The notes below the pieces were generated by a model that was not told where the DNA came from, did no database searches, and saw nothing but the letters and a program-made list of their open reading frames with translations. 64,000 nt of DNA from an uncultured bacterium. Its GTDB lineage: Bacteria; Actinomycetota; Acidimicrobiia; Spongiisociales; UBA5794. The stretch spans positions 320,001-384,000 of the forward strand of contig CAWDDT010000006.1 of NCBI GenBank assembly GCA_963801165.1, written 5' to 3'. The translations under genes and the position numbers were made by a program. This document shows, in pieces, positions 6,046-61,677 of the stretch. Within the stretch, counting starts at the first letter, position 1, and each line of letters starts with the position of its first letter.

Positions 6046-7431
6046 TTAGGCCTTCACCCGCTCGATCGAGCGGTCCGCACGCAGCACAACGAGCCGTGCC
6101 GCCGCTGACGGCGTGAAGCGCTCGCTGGCAAAGACAACCGCCTCTCGTTTCGTCGCAAATACTCGCTTCGAGATCGCCTTCCCGCGCACTCGATGCACCT
6201 GCCAGCCGCCCGCTGCTCTCGGCTCGACTGTGTCGGTGAGCGACTTCGTGTCGGGGAATGCGTATAGACCCGGCCGACGCGGCAACCATTCGAGATGAGC
6301 GCGATCTGCCGGGATACCCGGCGTAGCTGCGGCGTCGGGTGTCAGCGGCGACGTGGCCCAGAATGTTGTGAACGGCTGCGTCCAGTCGACGGCCTCTGCG
6401 TACGACATCACGGTGCTCCGAGCCGAGTCGATGGCAGCGTCTGTCGACTGACGCCCCAGGAAGTGGAGCCCCTGACGTAGCATGCGCAGCCCCACCGTGA
6501 GCAGCGGTGGACCGAGATTGGCGGCCCGTACCAGTGAGTCGGCAGCCGCCTCCAGGTCACGTTGTTGCGGGTCCCAGAGCATCTGCAAACCGTGGATGAT
6601 GGCGGCATCGGGCAGATAGCTTTTCCAGTTCTCGAAATTGCCGGGCCAGTAATGGAGCCGCCCGTACTCCCCTGCCTTGAGCAGGTAATAGCCTCCGATG
6701 GCCGCGCCCGTAGGATCCGCGAGCTTCTCGAACAACAGACGCTCCGCGGCAACCATTCGACCGGTCTCGACCTCGCCCCGGCTCAGATACCGAAGCACCG
6801 AATCAACCTGGCGGTCGTGTTTGGACGCGAGGTCCGAGGCAATCGATACGCTCACGGCCATTCCTCGCCCGTCCGTAGCCATAGGGGCGACCGGCCGGAT
6901 AGCGATCGAGGCTAGCGATTCAGCCGGGAGGACAGAGACACGTGGCGTGGCCGCTGGTGATCCGATAAGCACGTAGTTCATGCCGCGCGGCAGGAGGTCT
7001 TTGAAGGTGATCTTCCAGGAGATCAGGTCCGACTCGCTGTAGCTGGCGGGCCACGGCTGCGGGTTCGCCCCCCATAGCTGAACCCAGGGTGTCTCTGCTG
7101 CGCTCCGGCGGTGGCTCCGGTACCGTTCCGGGGCGGGCGCTTGCCCGGCGGCCGTCTCCCAACTCAGCCACTCGTGCTGCGACGGCGGCGCTGGGATGTC
7201 GACCTCCCCTTCGCTCGAGGCAGCCACCTGGATCAGACGTCCCCCCGGGAATCTGGCCCGCACCACGTGTCGCTCGCCGGTTACCTCGACACCGGTCACA
7301 TCGCCTACCTGTAGCGACCTTTCTATGAGCAGCTCACCCGAGTCCGCATCGATGATCTCGGCAGTCAGGAGAGCCCCGTCGAGCCGGTTGCCGCCCGTGG
7401 TGTTGATGACCCTGATGTCGAGATGAGTCAT
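6046..7431 (-). CDS. Caspase-associated hypothetical protein with a C-terminal DUF2188-like domain
   Basis: ATGA overlap with the caspase stop. Core LLFEKLADPTGAAIGGYYLL...WPGNFENWKSYLPDAAIIHG. Tail GGWQVHR...FATKREAV...LVVLRADRSI resembles DUF2188. Confidence 0.7.
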   Translation of the reverse strand: MTHLDIRVINTTGGNRLDGALLTAEIIDADSGELLIERSLQVGDVTGVEVTGERHVVRARFPGGRLIQVAASSEGEVDIPAPPSQHEWLSWETAAGQAPAPERYRSHRRSAAETPWVQLWGANPQPWPASYSESDLISWKITFKDLLPRGMNYVLIGSPAATPRVSVLPAESLASIAIRPVAPMATDGRGMAVSVSIASDLASKHDRQVDSVLRYLSRGEVETGRMVAAERLLFEKLADPTGAAIGGYYLLKAGEYGRLHYWPGNFENWKSYLPDAAIIHGLQMLWDPQQRDLEAAADSLVRAANLGPPLLTVGLRMLRQGLHFLGRQSTDAAIDSARSTVMSYAEAVDWTQPFTTFWATSPLTPDAAATPGIPADRAHLEWLPRRPGLYAFPDTKSLTDTVEPRAAGGWQVHRVRGKAISKRVFATKREAVVFASERFTPSAAARLVVLRADRSIERVKA

Positions 7432-8558
7432 TCCTCGAGCTCCCATGCGATCTCGGGGTGAGGTGGCTGCGGATTCACCGTCGCTTCATAGGGACGCCAT
7501 CGCCGTGAGAACGTCGCCCGGCCTTGGTACTCCTTGACGGGGAGGCGTATGTGCCACGGTTCAGCACCGTCGAGTCGATGCGCGACGGGTTGACCGGCCC
7601 CCGCCTCGAAGATCGACAGCTCGACACCATCGGTCTCGTGGCCCGGGACGAGCATGATCGTCACAGGGATATCACCAGGACTGTCGGTGCAGTGAATGAG
7701 CGATTCGCGCCGTCCTCCTTCCGGCTGCGAGGTCTGTCGCGGGGCGCCCTCGTGCGCCTGCGCGTATGACATCGCCGCTTCCACACCTTCGGCGAGGTGG
7801 GAGGTGGAGACCCACCACGCACCGCGTCTCGGCCGGCATCCCATCCCCCGGAACGACGCAAGGATCGCTTGGGTAAACGCAGCCACACCCGCTACCTGTC
7901 CATAGGCCGGGTCGGTGGGCAACGTGGCGTAGAGACCGAAGGAATCAACGGCCAGATTCTGGTCAGCCAGCCAATCCGGGATCACCTCCCCGAGTTCGTT
8001 GCCGACCCGAAGAGATTCGAGGGAGACCTGACGACAGGCATCCGCAAAGAAACACTGGATCTTCGCCCGACAAGATGTAGCCATCGCCACGCGGGAGTCG
8101 TCGAAGTTGATTGCATTAGCGAATGGCTGACTGTCCGGGTCGCCGAAATCGGCGACGAGTAGTCCCAGGTGACCTCTCATCAGCCCGTGGCCGCAGAAGT
8201 AGAACATGGCGACGTTGTCTTCATTGCGGTTGCAGCGATCCACCCATTGCCGGAAAGCCGGCCGCAACTCTTCCATGGTTGGTCGTCCGATCCGTTTTGC
8301 CCGGGCCGAGCCGGGGGGTCGGAATCTGCGCGTCGGCGAGACGAGTAAGTCCAGGCTGCCCAGCGGTGCCTCGGAGTTCGTTAGCTCATCCCGGAGAAAG
8401 GTGGCAAACGCCAGTGCGGATTCGGGTGGAGAACTGAGTTTGGCAGTCAGGTTGAGGCCGGCCACGCGAGGGTCATCGATGTAGTCGTATTCGCCGACGC
8501 CGACAACGAGCGCGTGGGTGCGGGGCTCGGCCGATCCGTCGTCGTACAGCGCAGTCAT
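7428..8558 (-). CDS. Caspase-family (peptidase C14) protein
   Basis: HALVVGVGEY, FYFCGHG (His), FFADACR (Cys), FTQAIL. ATGA overlaps on both sides. Confidence 0.9.
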   Translation of the reverse strand: MTALYDDGSAEPRTHALVVGVGEYDYIDDPRVAGLNLTAKLSSPPESALAFATFLRDELTNSEAPLGSLDLLVSPTRRFRPPGSARAKRIGRPTMEELRPAFRQWVDRCNRNEDNVAMFYFCGHGLMRGHLGLLVADFGDPDSQPFANAINFDDSRVAMATSCRAKIQCFFADACRQVSLESLRVGNELGEVIPDWLADQNLAVDSFGLYATLPTDPAYGQVAGVAAFTQAILASFRGMGCRPRRGAWWVSTSHLAEGVEAAMSYAQAHEGAPRQTSQPEGGRRESLIHCTDSPGDIPVTIMLVPGHETDGVELSIFEAGAGQPVAHRLDGAEPWHIRLPVKEYQGRATFSRRWRPYEATVNPQPPHPEIAWELEE

Positions 8559-9643
8559 GCGAGATCGATCACGATGCCGGGGCTCGCGGCTTCGGGGTAG
8601 CTAACCGTGTAGCGATGCCGTTCCATGAGGTGCGGATCATCCCAGACGTCGTTGAATCGAGTCCGGTAGTTGAACAGGAGCTGGGGTCCCGATTCAGGGC
8701 GTTGTCCGCATGCGATCACCCGCGCCACGGCTTCTCTGTCCGGATGCCGGTAGTACGCGCCATTGCTGGAGAAGATGAACCGAGGACACGACACTTGCTC
8801 GACCATTCTTCTCGACACATTCTTCTTACTGCCGTGATGCGGCAGTTTGAAGGCGTCGAGCTCGAGCCGCTCCGATTCTCGCAGCGCCAACAGCCGGCCG
8901 AGAGAGTCCTCTAGAACGTCGGCGTGAGCATCACCGGCGAGCAGAACCGCGACCTCCTGACCATTGTCGGTGTATTCGGCGAGGAGGGCGATGGTCGTGC
9001 CGTTAGCGACGCTGCGATCCGGTGCGAAGGGTGCATCCTTCAATGCATCGAAGTCGAACGAGCCGAACGTCTCCCATCCCGGTAGCTCCTCCGGCACCGA
9101 CGCCGGCACCTCGGGGTCCAAGCCGGCTTCACGCACCACCCTGCTCCACCCCGGCCGGAGGGCGGCGAGCTGCGCCCGGCCCGGGGAGAGCACCGTCATA
9201 CGGAGCCCTCCCGCCAGTTTGCGCGACACCGGTGCCCCTAGGTCCGCGACGGCGATCGCCGGACCGAAGGGTCGGCTCCCGTTCCAGGTTTGGTTGCGAT
9301 CGAGGATTGCCTTGGTGAGTCGTTCGCCTGCGATCGGCCCGAACACCTCGTGCTCTTCCGACAGATGCGGGAATCCGTTGAACCAGATGTCGTCGATTGC
9401 CAGGTTGGTGTCGTTCTCGAGCAAGGTGACGATCCCATCGATGTGGTCCGCATCTATATGGGTCACCACAACGAGATCCACCCGGCGATCGCCCACGGGT
9501 AGGTCCTCGAGGCATCGGAAGACGCTCTCGCTCGTATCTGACGTACCGCCGTCGACGAGGATTCGATGGGGAGCGGCCGGATCGCCGTAGACGATCCAAA
9601 GCGCGTCACCCTGACTCGCCGGCAGCGCGCTGAGACGGAACAC
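8555..9643 (-). CDS. MBL-fold metallo-hydrolase (ComEC/Rec2-like, Avs1a-like)
   Basis: QGDALWI, ILVDGG, VTHIDADHIDG, LLAGDA, KLPHHGS, SSNG...HPD. Confidence 0.9.
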   Translation of the reverse strand: MFRLSALPASQGDALWIVYGDPAAPHRILVDGGTSDTSESVFRCLEDLPVGDRRVDLVVVTHIDADHIDGIVTLLENDTNLAIDDIWFNGFPHLSEEHEVFGPIAGERLTKAILDRNQTWNGSRPFGPAIAVADLGAPVSRKLAGGLRMTVLSPGRAQLAALRPGWSRVVREAGLDPEVPASVPEELPGWETFGSFDFDALKDAPFAPDRSVANGTTIALLAEYTDNGQEVAVLLAGDAHADVLEDSLGRLLALRESERLELDAFKLPHHGSKKNVSRRMVEQVSCPRFIFSSNGAYYRHPDREAVARVIACGQRPESGPQLLFNYRTRFNDVWDDPHLMERHRYTVSYPEAASPGIVIDLA

Positions 9644-9764: not shown

Positions 9765-9812
9765 TCGTCGGCTGACCGGGTTTGAACCCGCGACCTCTTG
9801 ACCCCCAGTCAA
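9765..9812 (-). repeat. Displaced, partly degenerate 3' half of tRNA-Pro (att junction)
   Basis: The 23-bp GCGACCTCTTGACCCCCAGTCAA (9790-9812) is identical to 18734-18756. The T-arm/acceptor part carries three substitutions and a 1-nt deletion. Confidence 0.9.
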
Positions 9813-10294: not shown

Positions 10295-11014
10295 TCAGGC
10301 TGGATTGCAGGGGTCGTCCCCGGCATTCATGATGGGCGCATCCTCGTTCAGCTGCTGCAGCTGAACGAGCGCGCGGACGCCGGGCCCTTCTGGAGCGTTT
10401 TCGGTTGAGAGCCGGATCCAGAGACTGGCGTCGTCGAGGGGTAGCGCGAGGTTGGGCTGTACGTGAGTGAGACGCCCGGTGGCGCCTGTCGTGACGTTTG
10501 AGAGCGACCCGAGGGGTACCTGATCCTGCCCGCTGCAGGTACCGAGTTCGATCGCGACTTGCGTAGCGGGAGCAGAATCTCGGACGGTGAGCAGCAACCA
10601 GACTACCGGATCGATTGCGGCTGGTTCGTCAACGACTACGAACGTAAGTGTGGCCGACAAGCCGTTCGCCGCCGGCAGGTCGTAGGTTGCAGCGGCCGTT
10701 GGGCCGGAGAACTGGCGGGCATCCGACGCCAGCTCCTCATTCCGAGCCTTCATCGCTTCCAGAGCGGTTTCAACACGTTCGAGCTCCGCCTGCGCTACGT
10801 CCCTGTCCGCCTCGACAGAAGAGACAGCTGCTCGGAGCTGAGCGATCTCTTGACTCGCCAGCTCCGGTCCGTCCGCTAAGGCTCCACGAGCCCCGTTCGA
10901 CCCGGCCGACTGGAGCACCCACCCGGCCGTGAGGCCGAGAGCGAAGACGAGCGCAAACAATCCAAGCCGAGAAATCCACCGCATAGCGCGCGGCCGTCCT
11001 GAGCTGCCGTTCAT
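10295..11014 (-). CDS. Exported/membrane-anchored hypothetical protein with a coiled coil and a two-Cys C-terminal domain
   Basis: ATG 11014 overlaps the upstream stop (ATGA). Hydrophobic segment LGLFALVFALGLTAGWVL, heptad region, then GTCS and DPC. Confidence 0.65.
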   Translation of the reverse strand: MNGSSGRPRAMRWISRLGLFALVFALGLTAGWVLQSAGSNGARGALADGPELASQEIAQLRAAVSSVEADRDVAQAELERVETALEAMKARNEELASDARQFSGPTAAATYDLPAANGLSATLTFVVVDEPAAIDPVVWLLLTVRDSAPATQVAIELGTCSGQDQVPLGSLSNVTTGATGRLTHVQPNLALPLDDASLWIRLSTENAPEGPGVRALVQLQQLNEDAPIMNAGDDPCNPA

Positions 11015-11649
11015 TGCGGAGTGGCTCTTGTTAGCGATGCTGCAATCATGGCAGCCCCGGCAAGTCCCCCGGCGATTCGCCACGTGGCCCGCCACCATTG
11101 CGACAGCAGTTGTTCGACGGCGCGTTCCAGGCCGGGATGACCTGACGGAGCGACAGCTCCCAACCAGAATGCGAACGCTCGGCCCGCGCCGAAAGCGAGC
11201 CCTGCTTCCAGGCCGTGGCCGTTGAGAGCAGCGACGATCAAGGCAACCCACAGCAAGGACGACGAGACGACCGTCCACCAGCCCAGGCCCAAGAGAAACC
11301 CAAAGAGAGGGACCCCGACAATGCGACGCTGAGCGGTATGCCGCCAAACCTGGTGACGTCGCGGGGAGAACACGCGCGGGCGACCTGTCAATGACGTCGC
11401 GAGAACGAACCCACCCAGCAATGTGAGGGCAACGCGATAGGTGGAGCCGTCAGTAGCCACGTCCGGGACCAGCCTGTCCAGGGTCGCGAAGGAGGCAACG
11501 GCGCCGGTCATTGCGCCGAGCGTGAAGAGAACCGATCGAGTGATTCGCGTACCTGGTCGACCGACCTGACCGCCGCAGATGGCGTTGATCCCTCAGCCGG
11601 TCGCCGTCATAGCTACCGCTGCCAACAGAGCAAGTACCACGCTCGCCAC
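11011..11649 (-). CDS. MauF/CcdA-like membrane redox protein, candidate selenoprotein (in-frame TGA at codon 19)
   Basis: GGGAGG RBS plus GTG 11649: MASVVLALLAAVAMTATG*GINAICGGQ...FTLGAMTGA is in frame with ORF 11011-11511. Later motifs RRHQV, FGFLLGLGWWTVVSS and FGAGRA are MauF-like. Confidence 0.65.
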
Positions 11650-11671
11650 GGAACCTCCCTTCATCAAACCG

Positions 11672-12127
11672 CTAGCAGGCACTTAGAACCCTGGCGCAGA
11701 TGCACCTCACGCCGGCGTCGTTGTCACAATCGCAGCAGATGGTGGTCCGACACGGTGATTGGGTTGTACAGACCCAGCAGCTCATGCCCGAGCCCCAGCT
11801 GTTGGGCTTCGTGCAAGGCGAGTTGCAGGAACTCCCTGAGCAACTGCAGCCATTGGTGCTGCATCCGGTGCCACAGCAAGGCGATGGCCCACAATACTGG
11901 GGACAGCATCCACCTGTCGGTGAACCACAGCTCGCCGCAGTGGCTGACGCGGGGCGGAACAGCGCGCCGTGCGCAAGTGTGTAGGCAAGTCCGTAGAAGG
12001 CTGCATCCGCGGCGCGCCTGAGGAATCGTCGCCGATCCATCGCACCCGCCACACGGGTCGCGGCCGCCACCGCCTTAGGGTGGTCTTCATGCCCGGGATG
12101 TGGCGATGATCGTCCATGGTGTCGCAT
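11672..12127 (-). CDS. Tat-exported cysteine-rich peptide (20 Cys in ~87-aa predicted mature part)
   Basis: DRRRFLR twin-arginine motif, h-region, ASATA cleavage site, then SCGSPTGGCCPQYC...SCWVC...CCDC...RCIC...SAC. ATG 12127 follows the upstream stop by 1 nt. Confidence 0.8.
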   Translation of the reverse strand: MRHHGRSSPHPGHEDHPKAVAAATRVAGAMDRRRFLRRAADAAFYGLAYTLAHGALFRPASATAASCGSPTGGCCPQYCGPSPCCGTGCSTNGCSCSGSSCNSPCTKPNSWGSGMSCWVCTTQSPCRTTICCDCDNDAGVRCICARVLSAC

Positions 12128-12128
12128 T

Positions 12129-12725
12129 TCAGCCCCCGTCCTCGCCACGACCCTGAAGGACTCGGTTCGTCGGTCGTGGCGAAGGTGACACCGCTGACCA
12201 AGCCAGAGCCTCGAGATCCTCTATTGAGTTGACCAACGACTTGGCAATGACCGTTCCCGTTTCGTCGATCACGTGTACGAACGGCGTGCCCCGGATGTCA
12301 AGGGAATCGAACACCTCCGCATCAACGACACCGGCAACAAGCTTCGTGGCCGGGAGTTCGCCGGTCACAGTGTCGTCGTCTTGGCGCTGCAACCACACGA
12401 ACTCGAGACTCTCGTTCCATCCTGCAATGAAGGAGTCCAGATCAGGAAGGAGGGCCTGGCATATTGGGCAATCTGGCAGTGAGAATATCGCGATGACGGA
12501 CCGCTTGTTTGCCGACCCGTTCCATTCGAGTCGATGCTCGCGCCCGTTGCTAGTGAAACTGATCGGTGGGGCCTTGGTTCCAATCGCGATCCCTCCGAGG
12601 TTCACCCGTCCTCGGCCGCCGAGATACACGAGACCAATCTGCCGGTACAGCAATAGAAGCGCCACACTCGAGAAGACGGCAATGAACCACAGCAGGCCAT
12701 ACGAGAGCCAGAACAGATCGCTCAT
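12129..12725 (-). CDS. MauD-like membrane-anchored thioredoxin-fold protein
   Basis: N-terminal TM followed by LLYRQIG, IGTKAPP, FSLPDCPICQAL (CxxC), and GTPFVHVID. Confidence 0.8.
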   Translation of the reverse strand: MSDLFWLSYGLLWFIAVFSSVALLLLYRQIGLVYLGGRGRVNLGGIAIGTKAPPISFTSNGREHRLEWNGSANKRSVIAIFSLPDCPICQALLPDLDSFIAGWNESLEFVWLQRQDDDTVTGELPATKLVAGVVDAEVFDSLDIRGTPFVHVIDETGTVIAKSLVNSIEDLEALAWSAVSPSPRPTNRVLQGRGEDGG

Positions 12726-13252
12726 GGCGCCGACCTCAACTGGAGGCCGAGCTCTTCGAGCACGTTAGGTACGGCAACGACCAGGACAGAACCGAGCAGG
12801 GCCAGCATGTAGAGGAGCGCCCCTTCCGCCGCGCCCAGCCTGCCGAACATCATCGGTGACGGCATTGCCCAGATCACACCGGCCCCGGCGATCAACACGG
12901 CGTTTCGAACGAGAGCAAGGTTGCCCGTTCTAAGGTGCCCTATGCCGCAGCCGCAGGCCGAGGCTACCCCCGCCCGAACATTGGCCGCGATGGCCGCCGT
13001 GAACCCAGCGAGCGTGCCGCCAGCGAGCACGGCCCCAGCTACTCCAGGGATCGACGGCATCAAGAGAAAGGTGGCAGCCAACAGCTCCAGAAAGGGAATC
13101 CCATATGAGACTATCTTGCGAAAACGCGAACGACGCATCAGCCAGACATATCCGGAGAGGGCACGAACAAATTCGTCGCGTGACCGCAGCTTCGCGATGA
13201 AGGAGAGAAGAAAGACGAACCCAAGTGTGAGTCGGATCCATTCGACGTACAC
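12722..13252 (-). CDS. MauE/DoxX-family membrane protein
   Basis: VFLLSFIAKL...F...GY...ELLAA...FTAAI...CGCG...LVRN. AAGGAGG RBS before GTG 13252. Confidence 0.85.
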   Translation of the reverse strand: MYVEWIRLTLGFVFLLSFIAKLRSRDEFVRALSGYVWLMRRSRFRKIVSYGIPFLELLAATFLLMPSIPGVAGAVLAGGTLAGFTAAIAANVRAGVASACGCGIGHLRTGNLALVRNAVLIAGAGVIWAMPSPMMFGRLGAAEGALLYMLALLGSVLVVAVPNVLEELGLQLRSAP

Positions 13253-13378
13253 AATCTCCCTCCTTCTGGACAACGATACACACGCATAGCCCAGAATGGG
13301 GGAGCCGCGCAAGAAATCCCTCCTGATCCGGTGGTCGAAGCGCCGTGCCCGGGTCGCAAAGCGTCGTCCTTCCGCATG

Positions 13379-16120
13379 TCATCGGGCGGTGCTACGGGTG
13401 CTGTCTCGGTTTCGGGTGCGTTCGGCGTTGTGGCGTTGTCTGGCGGCTTCGATGCTCTGGTTGATCTTCTGACAGATCTCGTGGTCGTCGTCGGAGCCGT
13501 GAGCTGGCTTGTCGACGTCGTGGTCGGGTGGGTGCGTCCCGGCTTGCAGCTCGACTCCGAGCGAGGAGGTCAACACCCTGCCGGCTTCGAGGCGTGTTCG
13601 TTGGGCGATGGCGGGTTGGTCGATCCAGTGCCGGACCGCGGCTTGGGTAAGCACGTCGGCTGCTGTCTCGCCGTCGTTGGTGACGACGTAGGCGTGGTTG
13701 GAGGTTCGGCCCCGTGTCAGCGGCGTGTAGAGGCCGCGGCTGTCGGTGGGGCCGTCGACGAGGAGGAGCCCGGTGTCGACGGTGCGGCCTTGGGTGGCGT
13801 GGCTCGTCTGCGCGTAGCCCAGCTCGAGGTCCTCGGCGGCGTAGTCGGCGGGTAGACGAACCCTGCCAGCCCTACCGGCGACGGTGACGGCGCCGTCGGG
13901 GTGGATGGCTTCTATGGTCCAGTGGTCCCGGTTCTTCACCATGACGCCGCGGTCGGTGCGTAGGGTGCGCTGGTTGTGGCGGGTGACGACTTCGTCGCCG
14001 ACAAGCAGCCGCTGGCGGCCGAGGCCGAGGGCAGGCCCGTTCGGGTCGAGCTCACCGGTGGCAATGCGTCGTTGTTGGGTTAGCTGGTTGAGACAGTGGA
14101 CGGTGTGGTTGGTGTTGGCCATCAACGCTACCGACTCGCCCCGCCGCCGCGCCTCATGCCAGGCGTCGACGATGGCTGTCTCCATGGCGTTGGGGGTGCC
14201 GTCGTGGAGGCGACCGTGACGCTCATACTCCGCCAAGACGGAGGCATCTCCAGTACGAATTCGCCGGGTGGCGTCGGCTTCCCATTGGTGGGTGAAGCGG
14301 TGGATGTGGTCGAGTTCGACAGCTCCGTGGGTGTCGATGAGGCGGGCGAACATGCCGCCCCGACCGACGGCGGAGAACTGGCGAGGGTCACCCACCATCA
14401 CCACCCGCCATCGTTCCACGTCGGCGAGACAGGTGAGGGCGGCGAGTTTTGGTGTTGAGACGGTGCCGGCCTCATCGACGATCACCGTCGAGCCCCGCGG
14501 GAGATCGTATGGCGGTTGTGGTGGTCGGTCGGGCCGGGCGTGTTCGTAGAGGAGCTTGTCGAGGGTGTCGGCTGGCATGGTGGTTTCTGTGGCGAGCACC
14601 TCGGCGGCTGCTGCGGTGGGTGCCACCCCGAACACCGTCTGACCGCGGTCTTGTAGGTAGGTGACGGCTGGGGTGAGGGCGGTGGTCTTGCCGGATCCGG
14701 CGGGTCCGACGATCAGCTCCAACGGTGCCCCACCGGATGCCGCCCGGCACGCTTCGGCTTGACCCGCGCTCAGACCCTGCGTGTCTAGGCCCCGGGGTCG
14801 GGTGTTGATGATGTCGGCGAAGCGGCGCTGGCGTTGAGCCCACTCCACGATCCGTTCCTCCTCCTCGAGAATGGCGTGGGTGGTGAGGGCCCGGTCGAAG
14901 GCAGCTTCGCTGATCGGGCGCCCATCACGGCGCAACACAGCACCAGACGGCACTGGTGGGGACAGATCGACACAGCGGTTAGCGGCGACGTGGTTGGCGA
15001 GGTCCTGCAAGAAGCTGCTCAGACGATCCGGTTCGACCGTGATACTGGTGGGGACCTGGGCGGCGAGCTCACGGACCAGTTCGGCGGGACGCCACGTCGA
15101 CTGCCGCTCTGCCAACGCCCCTAACGCCGCCTCCACCATTCCGGCCATTGTCGCCTGGTCGATGCCGGTCGCCTCGCGGACACGACCCACCACGGCGGCG
15201 ACGAGGTGGTGTGGTTCGTAGCTGAGGGCTTGCAACCTGCTGCGCCACCCGGCGTGCAACTCGCCGGCTGTGTGACCGTGCGTTTTGGCGGGGCGACTAT
15301 CCAGCACAGCTTCTCGTTCCAGGCGCCACCGTTCCCGTGGTGTCGGCTCCCGCCCGAGGTCGCTACGGAACCGGTCCAGTTTCTCGTCGACACGCGTCTC
15401 GATGTCGCGGCTGCGTTGGGAGAACTCGGCCAGCACCCCCGCATCGACACCGACCATCTCAGAGATCCCATTCACTGGAGGCTGCCAGCGGACTCCGAGG
15501 CGGCGGGTCAGCTCGGCCCGCAACCCGGCGTGATACAACCCCGACAGGGTCCGCTGATCCATCTTCAACGTGCGGGCATCGAGCGCCAACCACCGTCCAT
15601 CCGGAGAGCGGACTCGGTTGGCGATCACCGCATGGGTATGCAGCTGCGGGTCGAGGCGACGGCTGGTGTGCTGACGGAATACCCCCACCACGATTCCTTC
15701 GGCGTCGACACACACCACATGACCCCGCCGCCGCAACCGAGTGTGCGCCTGCGACTCGATCCAGTCGAGCACTGCGTCGACGGCCCGGTCATGCGCCTCC
15801 GTCACCTGCGCTCGCAGTTGTTGGTCGCCGATGGCGAACAGCACCGACACCGACTTCGGCGCCGAAAACGTCGCATCGAACCCCCGCACCGAACCGTCGC
15901 CGAAGCGGCGGCCCAACCGCTCACCGCTCATCGGAGCCAGTCCGGCCATCACCGCCAAGAACGCTTCATCATCGACTTGCCCTCCGAGACCGAGCATCCG
16001 GGCGCCGTGTCCGAACCAGCGACCCGGCGGCTCACCGCTGTCGAGGTAGTACGACGGGAGCTGCTCGGTGTAGTAGCGACCAGCCTCGGTGCCCTTCAAC
16101 GTCGTCACCCGCACCGTCAC
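13379..16120 (-). CDS. MOB-F (TrwC-like) relaxase-helicase
   Basis: N-terminal RYY...SYY, DATFSAPKSVS, HTSRRLDPQLHTH (3H motif), GPAGSGKT, DEAG, GYAQTSHATQG. Confidence 0.95.
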   Translation of the reverse strand: MTVRVTTLKGTEAGRYYTEQLPSYYLDSGEPPGRWFGHGARMLGLGGQVDDEAFLAVMAGLAPMSGERLGRRFGDGSVRGFDATFSAPKSVSVLFAIGDQQLRAQVTEAHDRAVDAVLDWIESQAHTRLRRRGHVVCVDAEGIVVGVFRQHTSRRLDPQLHTHAVIANRVRSPDGRWLALDARTLKMDQRTLSGLYHAGLRAELTRRLGVRWQPPVNGISEMVGVDAGVLAEFSQRSRDIETRVDEKLDRFRSDLGREPTPRERWRLEREAVLDSRPAKTHGHTAGELHAGWRSRLQALSYEPHHLVAAVVGRVREATGIDQATMAGMVEAALGALAERQSTWRPAELVRELAAQVPTSITVEPDRLSSFLQDLANHVAANRCVDLSPPVPSGAVLRRDGRPISEAAFDRALTTHAILEEEERIVEWAQRQRRFADIINTRPRGLDTQGLSAGQAEACRAASGGAPLELIVGPAGSGKTTALTPAVTYLQDRGQTVFGVAPTAAAAEVLATETTMPADTLDKLLYEHARPDRPPQPPYDLPRGSTVIVDEAGTVSTPKLAALTCLADVERWRVVMVGDPRQFSAVGRGGMFARLIDTHGAVELDHIHRFTHQWEADATRRIRTGDASVLAEYERHGRLHDGTPNAMETAIVDAWHEARRRGESVALMANTNHTVHCLNQLTQQRRIATGELDPNGPALGLGRQRLLVGDEVVTRHNQRTLRTDRGVMVKNRDHWTIEAIHPDGAVTVAGRAGRVRLPADYAAEDLELGYAQTSHATQGRTVDTGLLLVDGPTDSRGLYTPLTRGRTSNHAYVVTNDGETAADVLTQAAVRHWIDQPAIAQRTRLEAGRVLTSSLGVELQAGTHPPDHDVDKPAHGSDDDHEICQKINQSIEAARQRHNAERTRNRDSTRSTAR

Positions 16121-16204: not shown

Positions 16205-16600
16205 TCAGGTGGAGCTGGGCTGCGAGTCGAAGAGGTCGAGCTGATCTGCGATACGGTCCCGGCGTTTTCGAGTCGGCCTTGTCGTCGGTGAGCGCTGAGC
16301 CGGTGGTTCTTCGGCCAACTCGCTCGGGCGTGGTTTCGGTGGTTCGGCCGGCAGTACGGCTTCCCTGGTCTCTTCGATCCGGCCGGGGCTGTCGAAGTAG
16401 GCGAGTTCAGCACCGATCAGATCCTCGAGCGCCCGCCGTGGCACCCGCAACACATGACCCAGATCGATCACCGGCAGACCCGACCGTCCATCGGTCTCCC
16501 GCCACTCCCTCGCCATTGCATACGCCTTGGTCCGCCCGATCCGCAGCAGCACGCCAGCTTCCTCCACGGTCAGAAGAACCGGGACCGTCTCACCAGACAC
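16205..16600 (-). CDS. Excisionase-like HTH protein
   Basis: LLTVEEAGVLLRIGRTKAY...LPVIDLGHVLRVPRRALE. Confidence 0.85.
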   Translation of the reverse strand: MSGETVPVLLTVEEAGVLLRIGRTKAYAMAREWRETDGRSGLPVIDLGHVLRVPRRALEDLIGAELAYFDSPGRIEETREAVLPAEPPKPRPSELAEEPPAQRSPTTRPTRKRRDRIADQLDLFDSQPSST

Positions 16601-16697
16601 AACCTGCCACCTTTGATCTCACTGCCTACTCCTTGTATCATACACAGAGTTTCAGCGCACTACCACCACAAGTCACAAGTTGTGTATGCTTTTGGTG
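16601..16697. promoter_or_regulatory. Divergent xis/repressor control region
   Basis: AT-richer gap containing the palindrome TGTATCATACA, the repeat CACAAGT x2, and a TATGCT -10 box 7 nt before ATG 16698. Confidence 0.5.
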
Positions 16698-17435
16698 ATG
16701 ATCCCACAGCCCAACCCACCACCGCCCGAGGACATCGACCTCAACCAGGTGGTCGCCTACAACATCCGCGAAGCCCGCCAACTACGCAGCTGGACCCAAG
16801 AAGACCTCGCCGACCGGCTCGAGCCATACCTCGGCCAGCGACTCACCCAGGCCGGTGTCTCCTCCATCGAACGGGCCTGGGACGGGGAACGGCGCCGCGA
16901 GTTCGACGCCCACGAACTGCTCATCTTCGCCATGGTTTTCGACCTACCCATCCTCTGGTTCCTCCTCCCACCACCCGGCGACCACCGGATAATGCGCTCC
17001 ACCACCCGACCCATCGACGAGCTGTACACATGGCTGCTAGGACAGCCCCACCAACTCGAACCGCTCTATGAACGGCTCCGGCAGATCGGTATCACCGAAC
17101 CCACCACAGCCGAACAGACCATTGAGAAGATCACCGGGATCCCCGCCGACGCAAAACAGTGGAGCTACCGGGAACGCCGCAAGGAACTCCTCTTGGCGCT
17201 CCTCAACGAACACGCCGACTCGCTCGACAACGCCGTCGAAGAACTCGGCCGGGTCGTCGACCACCTCCGGCAGGTGGGCATCCGTGGATTCATCGCCGAA
17301 CACACCGGCGACGAGGACTTCACCTATCCGGACGGGCGCGCGCCAACCCTGGAAACTCAACCGGCCACCGGCGTGGACAAGACGACACCAGGCGGCACCA
17401 ACGAACACCGTAAGTCAGCGGGAGAAACAGGATGA
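16698..17435 (+). CDS. XRE-family HTH repressor of the element
   Basis: VVAYNIREARQLRSWTQEDLADRL...VSSIER...ELLIFAMVFDLP. Confidence 0.85.
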   Translation: MIPQPNPPPPEDIDLNQVVAYNIREARQLRSWTQEDLADRLEPYLGQRLTQAGVSSIERAWDGERRREFDAHELLIFAMVFDLPILWFLLPPPGDHRIMRSTTRPIDELYTWLLGQPHQLEPLYERLRQIGITEPTTAEQTIEKITGIPADAKQWSYRERRKELLLALLNEHADSLDNAVEELGRVVDHLRQVGIRGFIAEHTGDEDFTYPDGRAPTLETQPATGVDKTTPGGTNEHRKSAGETG

Positions 17436-17469
17436 GAGGCCACCCCCTTACGAATAAGGAAGACAACAC

Positions 17470-18642
17470 GTGACTGAGAAGAGGCGACCCAGAGGTACGG
17501 GCTCAATTCGCGAGCGTGGCGAGCGCTACCAAGCCATCTACTCATACATTGACGGAAGCGGGAAGCGTCGTCGTCGCTCCAGGACCTTCGACACTAAAAC
17601 GAGGGCGCGGAAGTGGCTGAACGATCGTCTCGCCGATGTGGGACACGGCCGAATCGCTGATCCGCGCGTAGTCTCCGTCGGTGAGTACCTTCAGAACTGG
17701 CTCGGATCCCTCGGCATGCAGCAGCTCGAAGCTGCAACCGTGTCCTGGTATCGGTCGGCGGTGGTCCGGCACATCGTCCCGGAGCTTGGCACGGTCAAAC
17801 TCTCGAAGCTGTCGGCGGTGCAGATCGAATCGTTCCTCGCTGACAAAGCCAAGTCAGGTCGCCTTGACGGTGCCGGCGGTCTCGGCCCTGCGTCGGTGCG
17901 GCGACTACAGGTGACATTGCACAAGGCGCTCGACGCTGCGGTACGCAAGGGGATGCTCGCCACTAACCCGGCCGACCTCGCGGATAAGGTGAAGGTCCCG
18001 CCGCGCGATGTAACGGAGACGGTGTGGAGTCCGGCGATGATGACGACGTTCCTCTCAGCGACGGCGTCTGACCGACTTCACCCGATCTGGCAGACAGCCT
18101 GCATGACAGGATTGAGGCGGTCTGAGCTTGCTGGCCTGCAATGGCCCGACATCGACCTCGACGGCGGACTGCTGAGCGTGAAGCGGGCTCGAACTCAGGT
18201 GGACGGCCAGCCGGTGGTGAAAGGCCCGAAGTCGGCGGCGTCACGTCGGATCGTGGATCTTGATTCGGAGACGGTCATCGTCCTGAGACGGTGGAAGGTC
18301 GCACAACTTGAGGAACGTCTACGGGCTGGCACAGCCTGGCAGCCCGGAGACTGGGTGTTCACCAATCAGATTGGGGCACCGTGGCGACCCGACAGGCTCA
18401 CACGAGCGTTTGTGGACCGGGCGAGCGCCCTGGGCCTTCCAGCGACCGACGTCAAGGGTCTGAGACACGCTCACGCCACAGCCTTGCTCCGGGCCGGTGT
18501 CCATCCCAAGGTCGTGCAAGAAAGGCTCGGCCACTCGTCGATCAGCGTAACAATGGACATTTACTCGTCGGTGTTGCCTGGAATGCAACGTGAAGCGGTC
18601 GAGAAGCTGGCGTTGCTGATGGACTCGTTAGGCGCCCCGTAG
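17470..18642 (+). CDS. Tyrosine recombinase/integrase
   Basis: N-terminal GTGSIRER arm domain; TGLRRSEL, PKS, KGLRH, LGHSS, DIYS. Confidence 0.95.
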   Translation: MTEKRRPRGTGSIRERGERYQAIYSYIDGSGKRRRRSRTFDTKTRARKWLNDRLADVGHGRIADPRVVSVGEYLQNWLGSLGMQQLEAATVSWYRSAVVRHIVPELGTVKLSKLSAVQIESFLADKAKSGRLDGAGGLGPASVRRLQVTLHKALDAAVRKGMLATNPADLADKVKVPPRDVTETVWSPAMMTTFLSATASDRLHPIWQTACMTGLRRSELAGLQWPDIDLDGGLLSVKRARTQVDGQPVVKGPKSAASRRIVDLDSETVIVLRRWKVAQLEERLRAGTAWQPGDWVFTNQIGAPWRPDRLTRAFVDRASALGLPATDVKGLRHAHATALLRAGVHPKVVQERLGHSSISVTMDIYSSVLPGMQREAVEKLALLMDSLGAP

Positions 18643-18704: not shown

Positions 18705-18710
18705 TGCTCG

Positions 18711-18784
18711 TCGGGCTGGCCGGATTTGAACCGGCGACCTCTTGACCCCCAGTCAAGCGCGCTGCCAAGCTGCGCCACAGCCCG
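18711..18784 (-). tRNA. tRNA-Pro (GGG)
   Basis: CGGGCTG/CAGCCCG acceptor stem, CTTGA-CTGGGGG-TCAAG anticodon arm, GCCGG-TTCAAAT-CCGGC T arm. CCA is not encoded. Confidence 0.97.
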
Positions 18785-26869: not shown

Positions 26870-27349
26870 TCAGGTCGAGGTGACCACACCTTCTGCGGCG
26901 TCGACCAGAACTCGCCAGAGGTAGTTGCCGAAAGAACGAGACGGCAGCAGTAGATACGAAGGGCTTCCCTCCACGTCGTCCCGGACCAGTTCGGTGGCGA
27001 CACCGGCGATCAGAGTCCGTGCCGCCGCCCCGTTCGGGAACATGTCGTCGGACAGGTCGAGCGCACAGACCGCGGCCAGCACGTCCATGGCATGGTCGCC
27101 GGAAAGCCGGAACACCGCCCGGACATGCGACAGATCGACGTCAGCAGGGGCGGTGCCGTTCATCACGGTCGACTCCCCCGGTGTGACCGACCACTCCAGC
27201 GACTTCCCCGACAGGCGAGCCGTTCCCGGAGCAACATCGGCTTGGAAGCGTCGGGTCAGCCGGACTCCAGTCTCATCGGTCAGCGCGACGTCGGGCCCCG
27301 GCAGAAACGCCGGTTGCCGGACGGGGGAAGAGAAACGTGGTTCAGCCAT
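26870..27349 (-). CDS. soxG: Sarcosine oxidase subunit gamma-like
   Basis: VDLSH...FRLSG...CALDL...RSFGNYLWRVL; last gene of the sox cluster. Confidence 0.8.
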   Translation of the reverse strand: MAEPRFSSPVRQPAFLPGPDVALTDETGVRLTRRFQADVAPGTARLSGKSLEWSVTPGESTVMNGTAPADVDLSHVRAVFRLSGDHAMDVLAAVCALDLSDDMFPNGAAARTLIAGVATELVRDDVEGSPSYLLLPSRSFGNYLWRVLVDAAEGVVTST

Positions 27350-30167
27350 TGAGACGCTCCCCTTCCGTGTCGAAGTGCGCGTGGTGCTCCATCACCCGCA
27401 CCCCGGTGTTGGTTCCGTCGGGAAGCCGGACTGTCAGCACTGTCCCCGGGTCCGCATGGGGGCCGGCCACCTGCCCCAGACAAATCGACCTGCTGAGTGT
27501 CGGCGACCACCGGCTCGAGGTGATCCGCCCGATGATGGTGTTGCCTGAGACCAGCTGGCACGCCTCAGGGGGAACGAGCAGAGAATTCTCCGGTTGGAGC
27601 GCAACCAGCCGAACCCGGTCCTCGTCCCGTGACTGCCAGACGAGCTCCGGCTTGCCGGCAAAGTCGGGCTTGTCGAGCGCGATCAACCGGTCGATGCCCG
27701 CGGAGAAGCCCTGGGTGAGCCCGTCGGTGTCCTGGCCAACGATGAAGTGGCCTTTCTCCAACCGCATGATTCGCTGCGCCTCGACGCCGAACGGGGCGAC
27801 ACCGAGATCCTCCCCTGCGGCGACGAAGGCGTTCCACACATGCCGTGCATACCCGGCGGGGGCGTGAATCTCATAGCTCAGCTCGCCGGTGAAGCCGATT
27901 CGCAGCACGATGCAGTTCTCGACCCCGGCGACGGTGCCGGTGCGCACCCGCATGTAGCAGAACGTGTCCCGATCCAGGTCGATGTCGGTGAGACGGGCCA
28001 GCAGCTCTCGCGAGCGAGGACCGGCCACGTTCATCGACCCATACCCGTCGGTCACTGCGATCATCCGAACATCCCAACCGCGTGACTGGATCCAGTCGTC
28101 GAGCCAGTCCCATACCCGCCCCGCGCCACCGGACGTCGTCGTCATCAGCCACCGGTCGGTGGCAAGCCTCGCCACGACACCGTCGTCGAAGATGACACCG
28201 TCGTCGGTGCACATGACTCCATAGCGGACCGAGCCGACGGCGAGCTTCTGCCACTTGTTCGTGTAGACGAATTCAAGAAGATCGGGGACATCCGACCCGC
28301 TCAGCTCGATCTTGCCGAGCGGGCTCACGTCGATGATCCCGACGTTCTCGCGGACGTTGACCACCTCTGCGTGCGGGTCACCGTAGTGCGCGGGGCGGAT
28401 CCATTGACCGGCGACCAGCGGTCGCGCCCCATTCTCCTCATGCCACTCCTGCATCGGGGAATGCCGCACCGGCTCGTATCCGCGGCCGGCGAGGACGCCC
28501 AGGCTCAGAGGAGCATACGGGGGACGCCACGTCGTTGTGCCTGTCTCGGCGATCGAGCGACCCGTCGCCGCAGCGTGCAGCGCAACCGCGTTGGCCACTT
28601 CGAGCTTGCCCTGGCCGGGTCCCATGGTGACGGTCGTGTACCGCTTCGTCAGCTCCATGCTGTCGTACCCCTCGGCGACGGCCGCTCCAATGTCCTTCGA
28701 GCTGATGTCCTCCGAGAAGTCCACGAAACCGTGCGTCGCACCCCGGTACAGCTCGGGATGGTCCGCTGGTGGCAGCGGTGCCACGGCACGGGCCGGAAGC
28801 CTGGGCGGGGGCGGTGCCGCACTGGTGGGCAGCGCCGACCGCCATGCGGCCCGGGTGATCAGCGCCCGCTCGCCGGCCTCGCGGCCCACCGCCCTACCGT
28901 GCTCGACCAGCTGATCCGTCGTCCCGTCCCCCACGATCCCTCCGGTCGCCATCACGTCGTCGGGCAGGGGGCCGGGTAGATAGCGAGCCGCCCTCGGTGC
29001 GTACTCGGGTCGTGAACCCGCCATGTTGAGCAACGCCGTCGGCGTCGTCCACCCGGTAGCGGTTACGAGGAGGTCGGCGTCGATCTCGGACCCGTCCGCC
29101 AGTTCGACACTGGAGACCGAACCGCGGCCCCGGGCGCGGGCGATGCCGCCCACGCTTCGGGCATCGACGACCGTGACGTCCGCACCGACAGAGGCGAGGT
29201 CGGCTGCCGCGGCATCGCCGGACTCGTTGGCGGTGAAGACCACGGCTTTTGCCCCCGGCTTGACGGCATACAGGTTGATCAGCCGCCGCACCCCGGTAGA
29301 CAGCATTACCCCGGGAAGGTCGTTTCCCTCGAACACAAAGGGACGCTCCAGCGTCCCCGCCGCGACCACCAGCATCTTCGCCCTCGCCTTGATGAGCCTC
29401 TCGGTCACGGTCGGGTGGCTACGTTCCAGGATCGCCACCCAGTTGTGGTCGTAGCGACCGGTAACCACCGAATCGGTGAGCACCTCGATGTTGCCGGCGG
29501 AGCGGACGGCCTGCCGCAGCCGGTCCAGGTGCTCGAGATCGGTGCCGTTGCCCCACCGGAGATGCCCACCCAGCTGATGCTCTTCCTCCACCAGGATCAC
29601 GCGGGCGCCGGTCTGTGCCGCCGCAACCGCAGCGGCCATGCCGGCCGGGCCACCTCCAGCAACAACGACGTCGGGATGGGCAAACCTGTGGTCGTAGCGG
29701 TCGTCGGGAGGCCGGTTGGTGACCTCCCCGCCGGGAGAGAACTGGCGGAGCACCTTCTGGTATTGCGGCCACAGCCCCCTCGGAGCCATGAAGGTCTTGT
29801 AGTAGAAGCCTGGCGGGAGAAACCGGCTCAGCCCCCGGTTGGCGGACCGGACGTCGAATTCGAGCGAAGGCCAGGTGTTCTGAGAAGTCACCCGCATCCC
29901 TTCCTTCACGAGCCGGTGGCCGCCCCGCACGTTCGGTTCGTCTCCCACCTGAACCATGAGGTTCGGGTCGAGGAAACTGGCAAGAAGCATCCCCCGGCGC
30001 CGGTGGTATTTGAAGCTCCTGGCGAACACCGATACCCCCGCGGCGGCCAGTGCCGACGCGATCGTGTCTCCGACATACCCGACATGCGTCTTGCCGTTCC
30101 AGGTGAAGGCAATGCGTTGGGACCGGTCGATAACCTCGCCGGGGCGGGGAGCAAGACGGTTTTTCAT
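27342..30167 (-). CDS. soxA: Sarcosine oxidase subunit alpha
   Basis: GDTIASAL...RSFKYHRRRG, GGGPAGMAAA, KRYTTVTMGPGQGK, and a GcvT-like C-terminus. Confidence 0.92.
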   Translation of the reverse strand: MKNRLAPRPGEVIDRSQRIAFTWNGKTHVGYVGDTIASALAAAGVSVFARSFKYHRRRGMLLASFLDPNLMVQVGDEPNVRGGHRLVKEGMRVTSQNTWPSLEFDVRSANRGLSRFLPPGFYYKTFMAPRGLWPQYQKVLRQFSPGGEVTNRPPDDRYDHRFAHPDVVVAGGGPAGMAAAVAAAQTGARVILVEEEHQLGGHLRWGNGTDLEHLDRLRQAVRSAGNIEVLTDSVVTGRYDHNWVAILERSHPTVTERLIKARAKMLVVAAGTLERPFVFEGNDLPGVMLSTGVRRLINLYAVKPGAKAVVFTANESGDAAAADLASVGADVTVVDARSVGGIARARGRGSVSSVELADGSEIDADLLVTATGWTTPTALLNMAGSRPEYAPRAARYLPGPLPDDVMATGGIVGDGTTDQLVEHGRAVGREAGERALITRAAWRSALPTSAAPPPPRLPARAVAPLPPADHPELYRGATHGFVDFSEDISSKDIGAAVAEGYDSMELTKRYTTVTMGPGQGKLEVANAVALHAAATGRSIAETGTTTWRPPYAPLSLGVLAGRGYEPVRHSPMQEWHEENGARPLVAGQWIRPAHYGDPHAEVVNVRENVGIIDVSPLGKIELSGSDVPDLLEFVYTNKWQKLAVGSVRYGVMCTDDGVIFDDGVVARLATDRWLMTTTSGGAGRVWDWLDDWIQSRGWDVRMIAVTDGYGSMNVAGPRSRELLARLTDIDLDRDTFCYMRVRTGTVAGVENCIVLRIGFTGELSYEIHAPAGYARHVWNAFVAAGEDLGVAPFGVEAQRIMRLEKGHFIVGQDTDGLTQGFSAGIDRLIALDKPDFAGKPELVWQSRDEDRVRLVALQPENSLLVPPEACQLVSGNTIIGRITSSRWSPTLSRSICLGQVAGPHADPGTVLTVRLPDGTNTGVRVMEHHAHFDTEGERLNG

Positions 30168-30421
30168 CCGCTCCCCCGATCTCGAACCTCTGTGATCTCG
30201 TTGGTCACCGTGTCGCGTACGACAGAAAGGTATCGACGGCAGCCTGCGGCGTGGAACCACTGCTCGACCGCCGATCCCGCGGCGTTGTCGTGGAAGTACA
30301 GATAGTCACGCCACATCGCCGCAGTCGCCTCCTGGGGGTCCGGCCGGGTGTGTTGCTCACCGTGGTAGGTGAACTCCGACGAATTGCGCAAACCGCAGTG
30401 CGGACACGGGATCAGCAGCAT
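30164..30421 (-). CDS. soxD: Sarcosine oxidase subunit delta
   Basis: MLLIPCPHCGLR...EF...W..YLY...WFHAAGCR...RDTVT. Confidence 0.95.
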   Translation of the reverse strand: MLLIPCPHCGLRNSSEFTYHGEQHTRPDPQEATAAMWRDYLYFHDNAAGSAVEQWFHAAGCRRYLSVVRDTVTNEITEVRDRGSG

Positions 30422-30469
30422 CGTCTGCCCTCTCCGCGCAACGAAACCGGACCCGGTGCGCCGTCGCCC

Positions 30470-30690
30470 ACAAGGCCCTCATCGCCTTTCGCTTCGCTCA
30501 GGCACTTCTCCCAAAGGGAGAAGCAACAGGAACCACTCACAACGCCCTCGCTCGCTTCCCCCTGCCCTGTGAGAAGCGCCGACCAAACCGAAACCGATGA
30601 GGTACCGCGAATTCCTTCTCCCTCTGGGAGAAACACCGAGCGAGGCGAAGCCGATGACCGCCGACGAATTCCTTCTCCCAGAGGGAGAAG
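30470..30690. repeat. Cluster of REP-like units (both orientations) between soxB and soxD
   Basis: CTTCTCCC-AAA-GGGAGAAG and CCTTCTCCCTCTGGGAGAAA-type palindromes, plus TTCGCTTCGCTC / GAGCGAGGCGAA modules. Confidence 0.8.
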
Positions 30691-30714
30691 GAATAGGAAT
30701 CACCCAGCACACCT

Positions 30715-31971: not shown

Positions 31972-31996
31972 GGGTCTCGGTGGGTCGCTTGGGCTT

Positions 31997-32031
31997 GTTC
32001 CACGATCCGGTACTGTGCTGTATCGTGGAAT
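31997..32031. promoter_or_regulatory. Putative IclR operator pair between soxB and the IclR gene
   Basis: GTTCCACGATCCGGTAC plus GTGCTGTATCGTGGAAT; a matching pair lies at 38189-38223. Confidence 0.6.
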
Positions 32032-32058
32032 GCACACCCTAGCTATGGAATCAGCATC

Positions 32059-34116: not shown

Positions 34117-34119
34117 GGC

Positions 34120-36552: not shown

Positions 36553-36576
36553 GCTCGCCGTCCGATCTCTCGCCAA

Positions 36577-61609: not shown

Positions 61610-61677
61610 ACGACCGGAAATGGTAGTTGTCCGTTCGACCTGCGTAGCGGTCGAGGCCCCGCTCCCGCCCAACGAGA

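Follow-up and report, generated by a model that had tools for sequence, protein, structure and literature searches.

We analysed a stretch of 64,000 nucleotides (hereafter the window) from the genome of an uncultured bacterium of the class Acidimicrobiia, in which five translationally coupled genes occupy positions 10295-13252 of the minus strand. They form the sole cargo of an integrative and mobilizable element (IME) of 8.9 kb and are coupled by ATGA overlaps, a 1-nt gap and strong Shine-Dalgarno sites, with a spacing of a few bases elsewhere. The cassette encodes homologues of MauE, MauD and MauF, the membrane accessory proteins of methylamine dehydrogenase (MADH), together with a Cys-rich protein that carries a leader for twin-arginine translocation (Tat). 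Its fourth gene contains an in-frame TGA codon that very probably specifies selenocysteine (Sec) and is followed by a hairpin resembling a Sec insertion sequence (SECIS). The features of the cassette are the following:

12722-13252, minus strand: MauE-like membrane protein (DsbB-like, disulfide-forming) with a CGC motif; PF07291, E 2.2e-22, 80.2 bits against a cut-off of 27
12129-12725, minus strand: MauD-like membrane-anchored thioredoxin-fold protein with CPIC; TIGR02661, E 3.3e-12; ATGA overlap with the stop of the MauE-like gene
11672-12127, minus strand: small Cys-rich protein with a Tat signal, 151 aa; RRRFLRR motif, 20 Cys
11011-11649, minus strand: gene 4, membrane protein of the MauF family by hhalign, putative selenoprotein of 212 aa in read-through translation
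11593-11595, minus strand: TGA codon 19 of gene 4, putative Sec codon, in the same alignment column in four of four loci
11547-11573, minus strand: SECIS-like hairpin with a GGUC loop at 11559-11562, 30 nt after the TGA
10295-11014, minus strand: gene 5, a membrane anchor, a coiled coil and a C-terminal domain; ATGA overlap with the stop of gene 4

Relatives of the cassette were sought by the pattern of the Cys-rich peptide in one genome per species. A first scan based on the four closest peptides yielded no confirmed case among 71, and a broader pattern scan confirmed three of 186 matches: L001 (Actinomycetes), L002 (Thermoleophilia) and L003 (Actinomycetota), all of them metagenome-assembled genomes. 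The order of the first four genes, i.e. MauE-like (CGC), MauD-like (CxxC), Tat Cys-rich and membrane protein, was the same in all four loci, and because it recurred in each of the three related loci found, the arrangement is not attributable to chance. No MADH or MauG gene was detected among the 42 flanking open reading frames (ORFs) scanned there, and neither the MADH heavy chain nor a MauG domain among the 57 ORFs of the window scanned with Pfam. The initial annotation of this DNA had proposed a mau-like cassette tied to a Tat-exported Cys-rich protein instead of MauA, MauB and MauG, and this association was borne out in all four loci. The fifth gene behaved differently. It had only sub-threshold coiled-coil matches in Pfam, none in NCBIfam, and resembled none of the genes at this position in the other loci, BLASTP against gene 5 of L001 and L002 included; these two loci share a different exported protein (28% identity, E 2e-13), and the fifth position of L003 is taken by an ECF sigma factor, with a beta-propeller protein next in line. 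As the fifth gene differs among the loci, the core consists of four genes, and the coiled-coil protein, initially counted as part of the system, is not conserved with it.

Gene 4 starts at a GTG behind AGGGAGG, and its codon 19 is the TGA. The same column holds a TGA in all four loci, even though the products of the other loci are only 24-27% identical to that of the window; it comes after a hydrophobic helix with an (S/T)-rich end and before xANA, giving the motif (S/T)(S/T)(S/T)-U-x-A-N-A. Start codons with ribosome-binding sites lie upstream of the TGA (in L003 as a TTGA overlap with the stop of the peptide gene), and the first start codon past the TGA comes only after 27 codons in the window and about 81 in L003, the helix in between being conserved. 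Downstream, the GGUC loop is invariant in all four loci at 30, 30, 33 and 33 nt past the TGA, on stems of 4, 8, 8 and 7 bp. In the first fold, the region after the TGA of the window looked unstructured, and the hairpin emerged from the comparison of the four loci: 28 of 29 cells were paired (96.6%, as opposed to 24-59% for slid partners), six of the eight stem pairs showed compensatory changes, and none of 500 shuffles attained the observed pairing or covariation score, a statistic that overstates the independence of these mutually related loci. TGA triplets with such a downstream hairpin occurred seven times in 248,126 nt, four of them being the gene 4 sites. The SECIS of E. coli fdhF has a GGUC apical loop as well. 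At 30-33 nt, the hairpin lies inside the range of 16-37 nt after the UGA reported for bacterial SECIS elements (PMC10778597). A 6-bp GGUC hairpin also occurs 33 nt past another TGA of the window, at 44852 (plus strand); this TGA is on the strand opposite to scpA (44155-44925, minus strand), and the likeness was put down to chance.

In L001, genes for Sec synthesis and insertion adjoin the cassette: selA, selB, tRNA-Sec and selD (L001 3237-7363, minus strand) are situated directly upstream and divergently transcribed. The scores exceed the curated cut-offs (selA 473 versus 268 bits, selB 316 versus 242, selD 388 versus 125), and at the N-terminal site of the selD product Cys is found instead of Sec. 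No sel genes were seen in the L002 or L003 stretches. The conserved TGA, the covarying hairpin and the adjoining sel genes of L001 together indicate that gene 4 is most likely a selenoprotein gene. We thus regard it as very likely, as far as comparison of sequences can tell, that the gene 4 family encodes Sec; that Sec is actually decoded in the present host appears probable, with clearly less assurance.

The relationship of gene 4 to MauF was revealed by profile comparison. When the four gene 4 proteins were aligned with five MauF proteins by hhalign, the probability was 91.8% (E 7.3e-7, score 50.7, 172 columns), and none of 40 column shuffles reached this score, their maximum being 18.4. Comparisons with single MauF sequences gave E values of 3e-5 and 4e-6; among the controls, 20 residue shuffles reached 0.07 at best, reversed sequences 0.012 and 0.12, and five unrelated proteins 0.4-0.76. 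The homology runs across the TGA, and the TGA column coincides in the hhalign alignment with a membrane Cys, the sole one shared by all five MauF proteins. Judged from this alignment, the UGA and the MauF Cys are a classic Sec/Cys pair. The Cys position of the MauF motif SPCGY is kept as TGA in all four loci, the residues around it are not, and this is the single invariant redox column of gene 4. By crude hydropathy, the N-terminus is without charge and the loops that follow helices 1 and 3 are rich in Arg.

Family searches with gene 4 were mostly empty. It had no Pfam hit at E<=10, including DsbD_TM/DsbD_2 (PF02683, PF13386), and the four proteins had no match in NCBIfam release 20 at E<=0.01; since no Pfam or NCBIfam model exists for MauF itself, these results do not speak against the relationship. 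Sequence and profile searches of PDB returned noise only, and tblastn against plasmids returned no match. A word-index search retrieved only gene 4 itself, the public protein set carrying the 166-aa form alone. With this truncated form, 26 of 30 ESM Atlas clusters were unnamed proteins of about 160 aa, commonest in Actinomycetota, and weaker leads pointed to DsbD_2 (scores of 0.88 and 0.79, with shares of 16% and 86%, respectively). From these data gene 4 is very probably a homologue of MauF. The initial annotation had called it MauF/CcdA-like; the first half of this label stands by the hhalign result, and assignment to CcdA/DsbD was rejected, there being no Pfam hit and only one conserved redox residue, so that the DsbD_2 match in the ESM Atlas stays a lead. 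As to the distribution of MauF, amine dehydrogenase clusters on plasmids of Cupriavidus and Novosphingobium encode MauE and MauD beside a large subunit and a light chain, and no gene annotated mauF was present in the 10.5-kb stretch covered. If this holds, MauF is not universal among MauE/MauD/MauA systems.

The two upstream genes were assigned more readily. The MauE-like gene starts at a GTG at 13252 behind AGGAGGGAG, its ORF being open up to a TTG at 13312, and its CGC is found at residue 120 of the 196-aa ORF. The product is 29% identical to MauE of Paracoccus denitrificans, the other copies score 58.8 (L001), 61.1 (L002) and 37.3 bits (L003) with PF07291, and the CGC, a CXC active-site motif, is present in all four cassette copies and in P. 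denitrificans MauE. The MauD-like protein has an N-terminal anchor and weak Pfam matches to Redoxin, AhpC-TSA and Thioredoxin_2, and its CxxC reads CPIC, CPIC, CSLC and CPLC in the four loci. It is 28% identical to P. denitrificans MauD over residues 1-174. With TIGR02661 it scores 46.3 bits (62.7 for the L001 copy) against an equivalog cut-off of 188.6, and by this measure it is a MauD homologue, not an equivalog. Tblastn with it found 23 plasmid records; the 20 listed were 27-32% identical over 82-89% of the query, 13 of them falling on genes annotated mauD. A word-index search gave one fragment, 98% identical and labelled as an Acidimicrobiia metagenome-assembled genome. The mau operon on plasmid 1 of P. 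denitrificans PD1222 runs mauF-mauB-mauE-mauD-mauA-amicyanin-mauJ-mauG; the cassette has the same order of mauE, mauD and client, from which it follows that the Cys-rich gene occupies the position of mauA. In L002, a second pair of MauE/DoxX and thioredoxin-fold proteins (CGC, CGPC; 16446-17626, minus strand) is found 6 kb from the cassette and has no peptide gene.

The Cys-rich protein starts at an ATG at 12127 (alternatively at a GTG at 12148) and has all of its 20 Cys within a mature part of about 85 aa. Its family is rare: HMMER detected 22 proteins at E<=1e-3, two of them at E<=1e-30, in 1.84 billion representatives. A Tat leader and the motifs GCPxxCGPSPCC, CW, TCCDC and CIC are common to its members, which contain 16-22 Cys, an even number in 17 of the 18 aligned. 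One Trp (of the CW pair) and one Asp (of CCDC) are invariant in this alignment of 18 sequences, which omits P0010, P0013, P0015 and P0017 (seemingly truncated or frameshifted) and P0023 (three short stretches); one further peptide alignment consisted of 13 relatives with the CGPSPCC stretch. The AlphaFold 2 model predicts a compact, beta-rich mature domain with block-mean confidence (pLDDT) of 69-90. A word-index search found one relative, and no match was obtained in Pfam, NCBIfam or PDB by sequence search, or in plasmids by tblastn. Of the roles suggested for the peptide in the initial annotation (toxin, signal or metal chelator), none was supported by these searches.

The cassette and its mobile element are almost certainly real. 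Apart from the cassette, only genes for a TrwC relaxase, an Xis-like helix-turn-helix (HTH) protein, an HTH_3 protein and a tyrosine integrase were recognised by Pfam between the terminal 43-nt direct repeats, which copy the 3' half of a tRNA-Pro gene. With an integrase, a relaxase and att repeats at a tRNA gene, and no mating-pore genes, the element is an IME, and both the coupled five-gene operon and its place as the only cargo had been described correctly at the outset, as had the tat genes of the host. The corresponding features of the window are:

9770-9812: left att repeat of the IME, copying the 3' half of tRNA-Pro (43-nt direct repeat D1, 93% identical)
18714-18756: right att repeat, within tRNA-Pro (18710-18784, minus strand; direct repeat, 43 nt, 93% identical)
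13379-16120, minus strand: TrwC-type relaxase/helicase of the IME (PF08751, E 7e-81; AAA_30, E 6e-52)
16205-16600, minus strand: Xis-like HTH_17 protein (PF12728, E 2e-4, below the cut-off)
17470-18642, plus strand: tyrosine integrase of the IME (PF00589, E 7.6e-21)
60504-61211, minus strand: host tatC (PF00902, E 1e-62)
61211-61672, minus strand: host tatA/B (PF02416, E 2e-10)

A promoter and terminator scan of the region gave nothing informative. The related loci have mobile neighbours as well, namely Tn3 and IS256 transposases in L001 and a serine recombinase, a Replic_Relax protein and an insertion sequence in L002, which places the cassette on mobile elements in two to three of the four loci. 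Downstream of the L002 cassette there are a MacB-type ABC transporter and a PadR regulator. Just beyond the left repeat of the IME, three overlapping genes (6046-9643, minus strand) encode a 466-aa protein with no assigned family, a caspase-like Peptidase_C14 protein (7428-8558) and a protein of the metallo-beta-lactamase fold (8555-9643), a trio resembling a conflict or defence system. Positions 27342-38103 (minus strand) contain a host cluster for the catabolism of methylated amines, with a sarcosine-oxidase-alpha-like protein, three DAO oxidoreductases, GCV_T domains and an MTTB-family methyltransferase; the host handles methylamines, with no MADH genes in view within the window. Between this cluster and lytB, a DUF222/HNH endonuclease gene is present (38527-39645, plus strand), a type frequent among actinobacterial genomes.

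The cassette can be compared with several known systems. With the mau cluster it shares homologues of all three membrane accessory proteins, a small client that has a Tat leader and is rich in putative disulfides, and a Sec column that matches the invariant Cys of MauF. It differs in that MauB, MauG, amicyanin, MauJ and MauM/N are absent, that the MauF homologue begins about 65 residues later, lacking one extra N-terminal helix, and has UGA for the Cys codon, that the mauF-like gene follows the client whereas mauF leads the mau operon next to mauB, that it resides on a mobile element in Actinomycetota hosts, and that the client did not come out as MauA in hidden Markov model (HMM), profile or fold searches. 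DsbB/DsbA and DsbD/DsbC also include a Cys-pair oxidant in the membrane that works via a thioredoxin-fold protein, along with another redox protein of the membrane, and act on clients with many disulfides. However, neither DsbB nor DsbD is related to the cassette proteins, one Sec stands in place of two Cys in the second membrane protein of the cassette, and the Dsb system serves the whole envelope while the cassette would be dedicated to one co-encoded client. CcdA/DsbD_2-ResA/TlpA relays likewise combine a polytopic membrane protein, a redox residue in helix 1 and an adjoining anchored thioredoxin-fold protein, but in the cassette there is one conserved redox residue instead of two, and a cytochrome c context is missing.

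Membrane selenoproteins have been described before. Table 1 of a 2026 review (PMC13188914) lists MerT-like proteins, a Cu/Zn efflux transporter of the SO_0444 family, YeeE/YedE and the rhodanese/DsbD-fusion TsoB. These resemble gene 4 in being small polytopic proteins with Sec within or close to a membrane helix and in having database entries truncated at the UGA, and gene 4 differs from them by the lack of a second conserved Cys or Sec. Neither MauF nor a similar membrane family is among the 119 prokaryotic selenoprotein families and subfamilies tabulated there. A search of the full-text literature for selenoproteins or selenocysteine in connection with MauE, MauF, DsbD or methylamine utilisation returned nothing relevant.

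From the gene order, the families, the TGA, the covariation and the sel genes of L001, we infer how export, disulfide formation and the action of Sec may be connected. We regard as most likely a MauE/MauD/MauF module for the oxidative folding of a disulfide-rich Tat client, helped by a Sec-bearing MauF-like protein. The client, with its twin-arginine leader and 20 Cys, would be exported by the host Tat system, and about ten disulfides would be formed outside the membrane, the MauE homologue (CGC) oxidising the MauD homologue (CPIC) and the latter oxidising the client. In the MauF-like protein, the UGA at the invariant membrane Cys of MauF would be read as Sec with the aid of the SECIS hairpin, and this residue (Cys in MauF), placed by crude hydropathy in the cytoplasmic half of helix 1, would be the redox-active one. 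Because a client with ten disulfides would need correction, we propose that Sec provides a second redox arm, either by thiol/selenol exchange that corrects wrong disulfides or as a reductant relay to MauD. This second arm is the weakest inference of the mechanism, and the isomerase or reductant role of the MauF-like protein is put forward only tentatively. Oxidative folding of the client, by contrast, seems the better-founded part and, going by the genes present, moderately probable, because MauE replaces DsbB in E. coli, where its CXC motif is essential according to a preprint (10.64898/2026.03.05.709764); the same preprint gives MauA as present in only 10.2% of MauE-bearing species.

Several observations weigh against this interpretation. 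As MauE alone replaced DsbB in E. coli in the preprint, MauF is not needed for simple oxidation, and with one conserved redox residue gene 4 alone cannot run a dithiol relay of the CcdA/DsbD type. The relation of gene 4 to MauF is remote (23-26% identity), its AlphaFold 2 model is poor (pLDDT 64), and Foldseek against PDB with this model gave no match at E<=0.001. A frameshift, possibly a sign of decay or an error of long-read sequencing, divides the peptide gene of L002 (9923-10516, plus strand). Regarding Sec, no sel gene and no tRNA-Sec were found in the 64-kb window; the hairpin of the window has only a 4-bp perfect core as compared with 7-8 bp in the other three loci; single-sequence folds are no stabler than shuffles (z +0.24 to -0.86; +0.96); Rfam at the gathering score detected only tRNA and a group II intron and no SECIS family; and the conservation rests on four loci that are related to each other.

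Three other explanations were considered. The peptide might be a very diverged MauA-type subunit bearing a cofactor (e.g. a Trp- or Cys-derived quinone), with the large partner and the cofactor enzyme encoded elsewhere, in which case the MauE/MauD/MauF set would act exactly as it does for MADH. This would account for a gene in the mauA position after mauE and mauD, for the presence of all three accessory homologues and for the invariant Trp and Asp, and it agrees with the ESM Atlas, where nine of the 30 clusters nearest to the peptide are Me-amine-dh_L, i.e. MauA light chains (score 0.95, 178 shared features). The leader regions of full-length peptide and MauA profiles also align (hhalign E 7.9e-5), leaders alone scoring 19.9, which none of 60 column shuffles reached (maximum 16.5); yet this likeness centres on the Tat motif, the region upstream of the motif giving no signal by itself. 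In the mature domains, the hhalign score of 10.8 was equalled by 27 of 40 column shuffles. The peptide had no hit to PF02975 at E<=10 or to TIGR02659 at E<=1 (a true MauA scores 399 bits), a PDB profile search gave two unrelated chains only and no MADH light chain, Foldseek against PDB with the peptide model reached no match at E<=0.001 and had no MADH chain in the 50 rows listed, the alignment rows show that the peptide stops short of the region bearing the second cofactor Trp of MauA, and none of the 57 window and 42 locus ORFs scanned is MauB- or MauG-like. Membership of the MauA family was rejected on the HMM results, profile and fold searches having given no match either, and the language-model match stays as a lead, not a result, for kinship. 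We therefore consider a MauA-type subunit improbable. To a similar degree we doubt that the module is reductive, with the MauF-like protein importing reducing power as CcdA does, via a TlpA/ResA-like MauD, and keeping the 20 thiols reduced, so that the exported peptide, as cargo for resistance or storage, would bind soft metals or metalloids (Cu, Hg, Cd, As, Se) on the surface of the cell. Such cargo is typical for mobile elements, on which the cassette resides in two to three of four loci, and the anchored MauD-like protein with its weak Redoxin, AhpC-TSA and Thioredoxin_2 matches, the DsbD_2 leads for gene 4, a crude hydropathy estimate that puts Sec nearer the cytoplasmic side in helix 1 and an earlier report, mentioned in the preprint (10.64898/2026.03.05.709764), that MauE might be a reductase all fit this scheme. 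On the other hand, MauE acts as an oxidant replacing DsbB in the same preprint, the even Cys counts in 17 of 18 family members are as expected with all Cys paired, the peptide model is compact and beta-rich unlike a metallothionein-like coil, gene 4 has no Pfam DsbD/CcdA hit and one conserved redox residue, and no metal-resistance genes are adjacent.

It is very unlikely, finally, that the TGA is an ordinary stop, gene 4 being either a pseudogene in decay or two ORFs, for a hydrophobic peptide of 18-27 aa and a protein of 166 aa, and the hairpin a by-product of Gly-Gly-His/Arg coding. The hairpin loop does overlap a conserved GG(H/R) motif, single-sequence folds are unremarkable, only the 166-aa form is in the public protein set, and no Sec machinery is visible in the window. 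Against this, the stop is kept in one column in four loci of diverged products, homology to MauF continues across it, a start codon is lacking for 27 (window) or about 81 (L003) codons though the helix in this interval is conserved, the stems show covariation against a background of differing flanking residues, and a sel operon adjoins the L001 cassette.

In summary, the initial observation is real and was mostly read correctly, and the in-frame TGA, which very probably makes the membrane protein a selenoprotein (TGA in four of four loci, covarying hairpin, sel genes in L001), is its most interesting part. A candidate selenoprotein family of the MauF type is thereby added, which has no model in NCBIfam release 20 and is not in the 119-family table of 2026. 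The Sec/Cys pairing points to the likely redox-active residue of MauF, so that the role of MauF in quinoprotein maturation becomes directly testable. The MauE/MauD/MauF trio can apparently travel without a dehydrogenase, attached to a different disulfide-rich Tat client, which extends the recent proposal of MauE as a general oxidative-folding factor, and a rare family of exported proteins with 16-22 Cys is defined. Database entries of the gene 4 family are truncated at the UGA, and the unnamed ESM Atlas clusters of about 160 aa may be more such forms.

A more far-reaching model can be offered as a speculation that we hold to be possible rather than likely. MauE/MauD/MauF would be a self-contained, transferable machine for highly knotted mini-proteins exported by Tat, with MauA as one client and the Cys-rich family of Actinomycetota and Chloroflexota as a second, undescribed client class, and the Cys or Sec of MauF would be the catalytic centre of selenol/thiol exchange in the membrane. 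If so, the second client class would consist either of knotted effectors that are secreted or of new mini-proteins that bear a cofactor, and the use of Sec would mark selenol/thiol exchange as rate-limiting for the folding of ten disulfides. To our knowledge, the role of MauF in MADH biogenesis has never been defined, and the model, if true, would provide the first functional handle on this protein.

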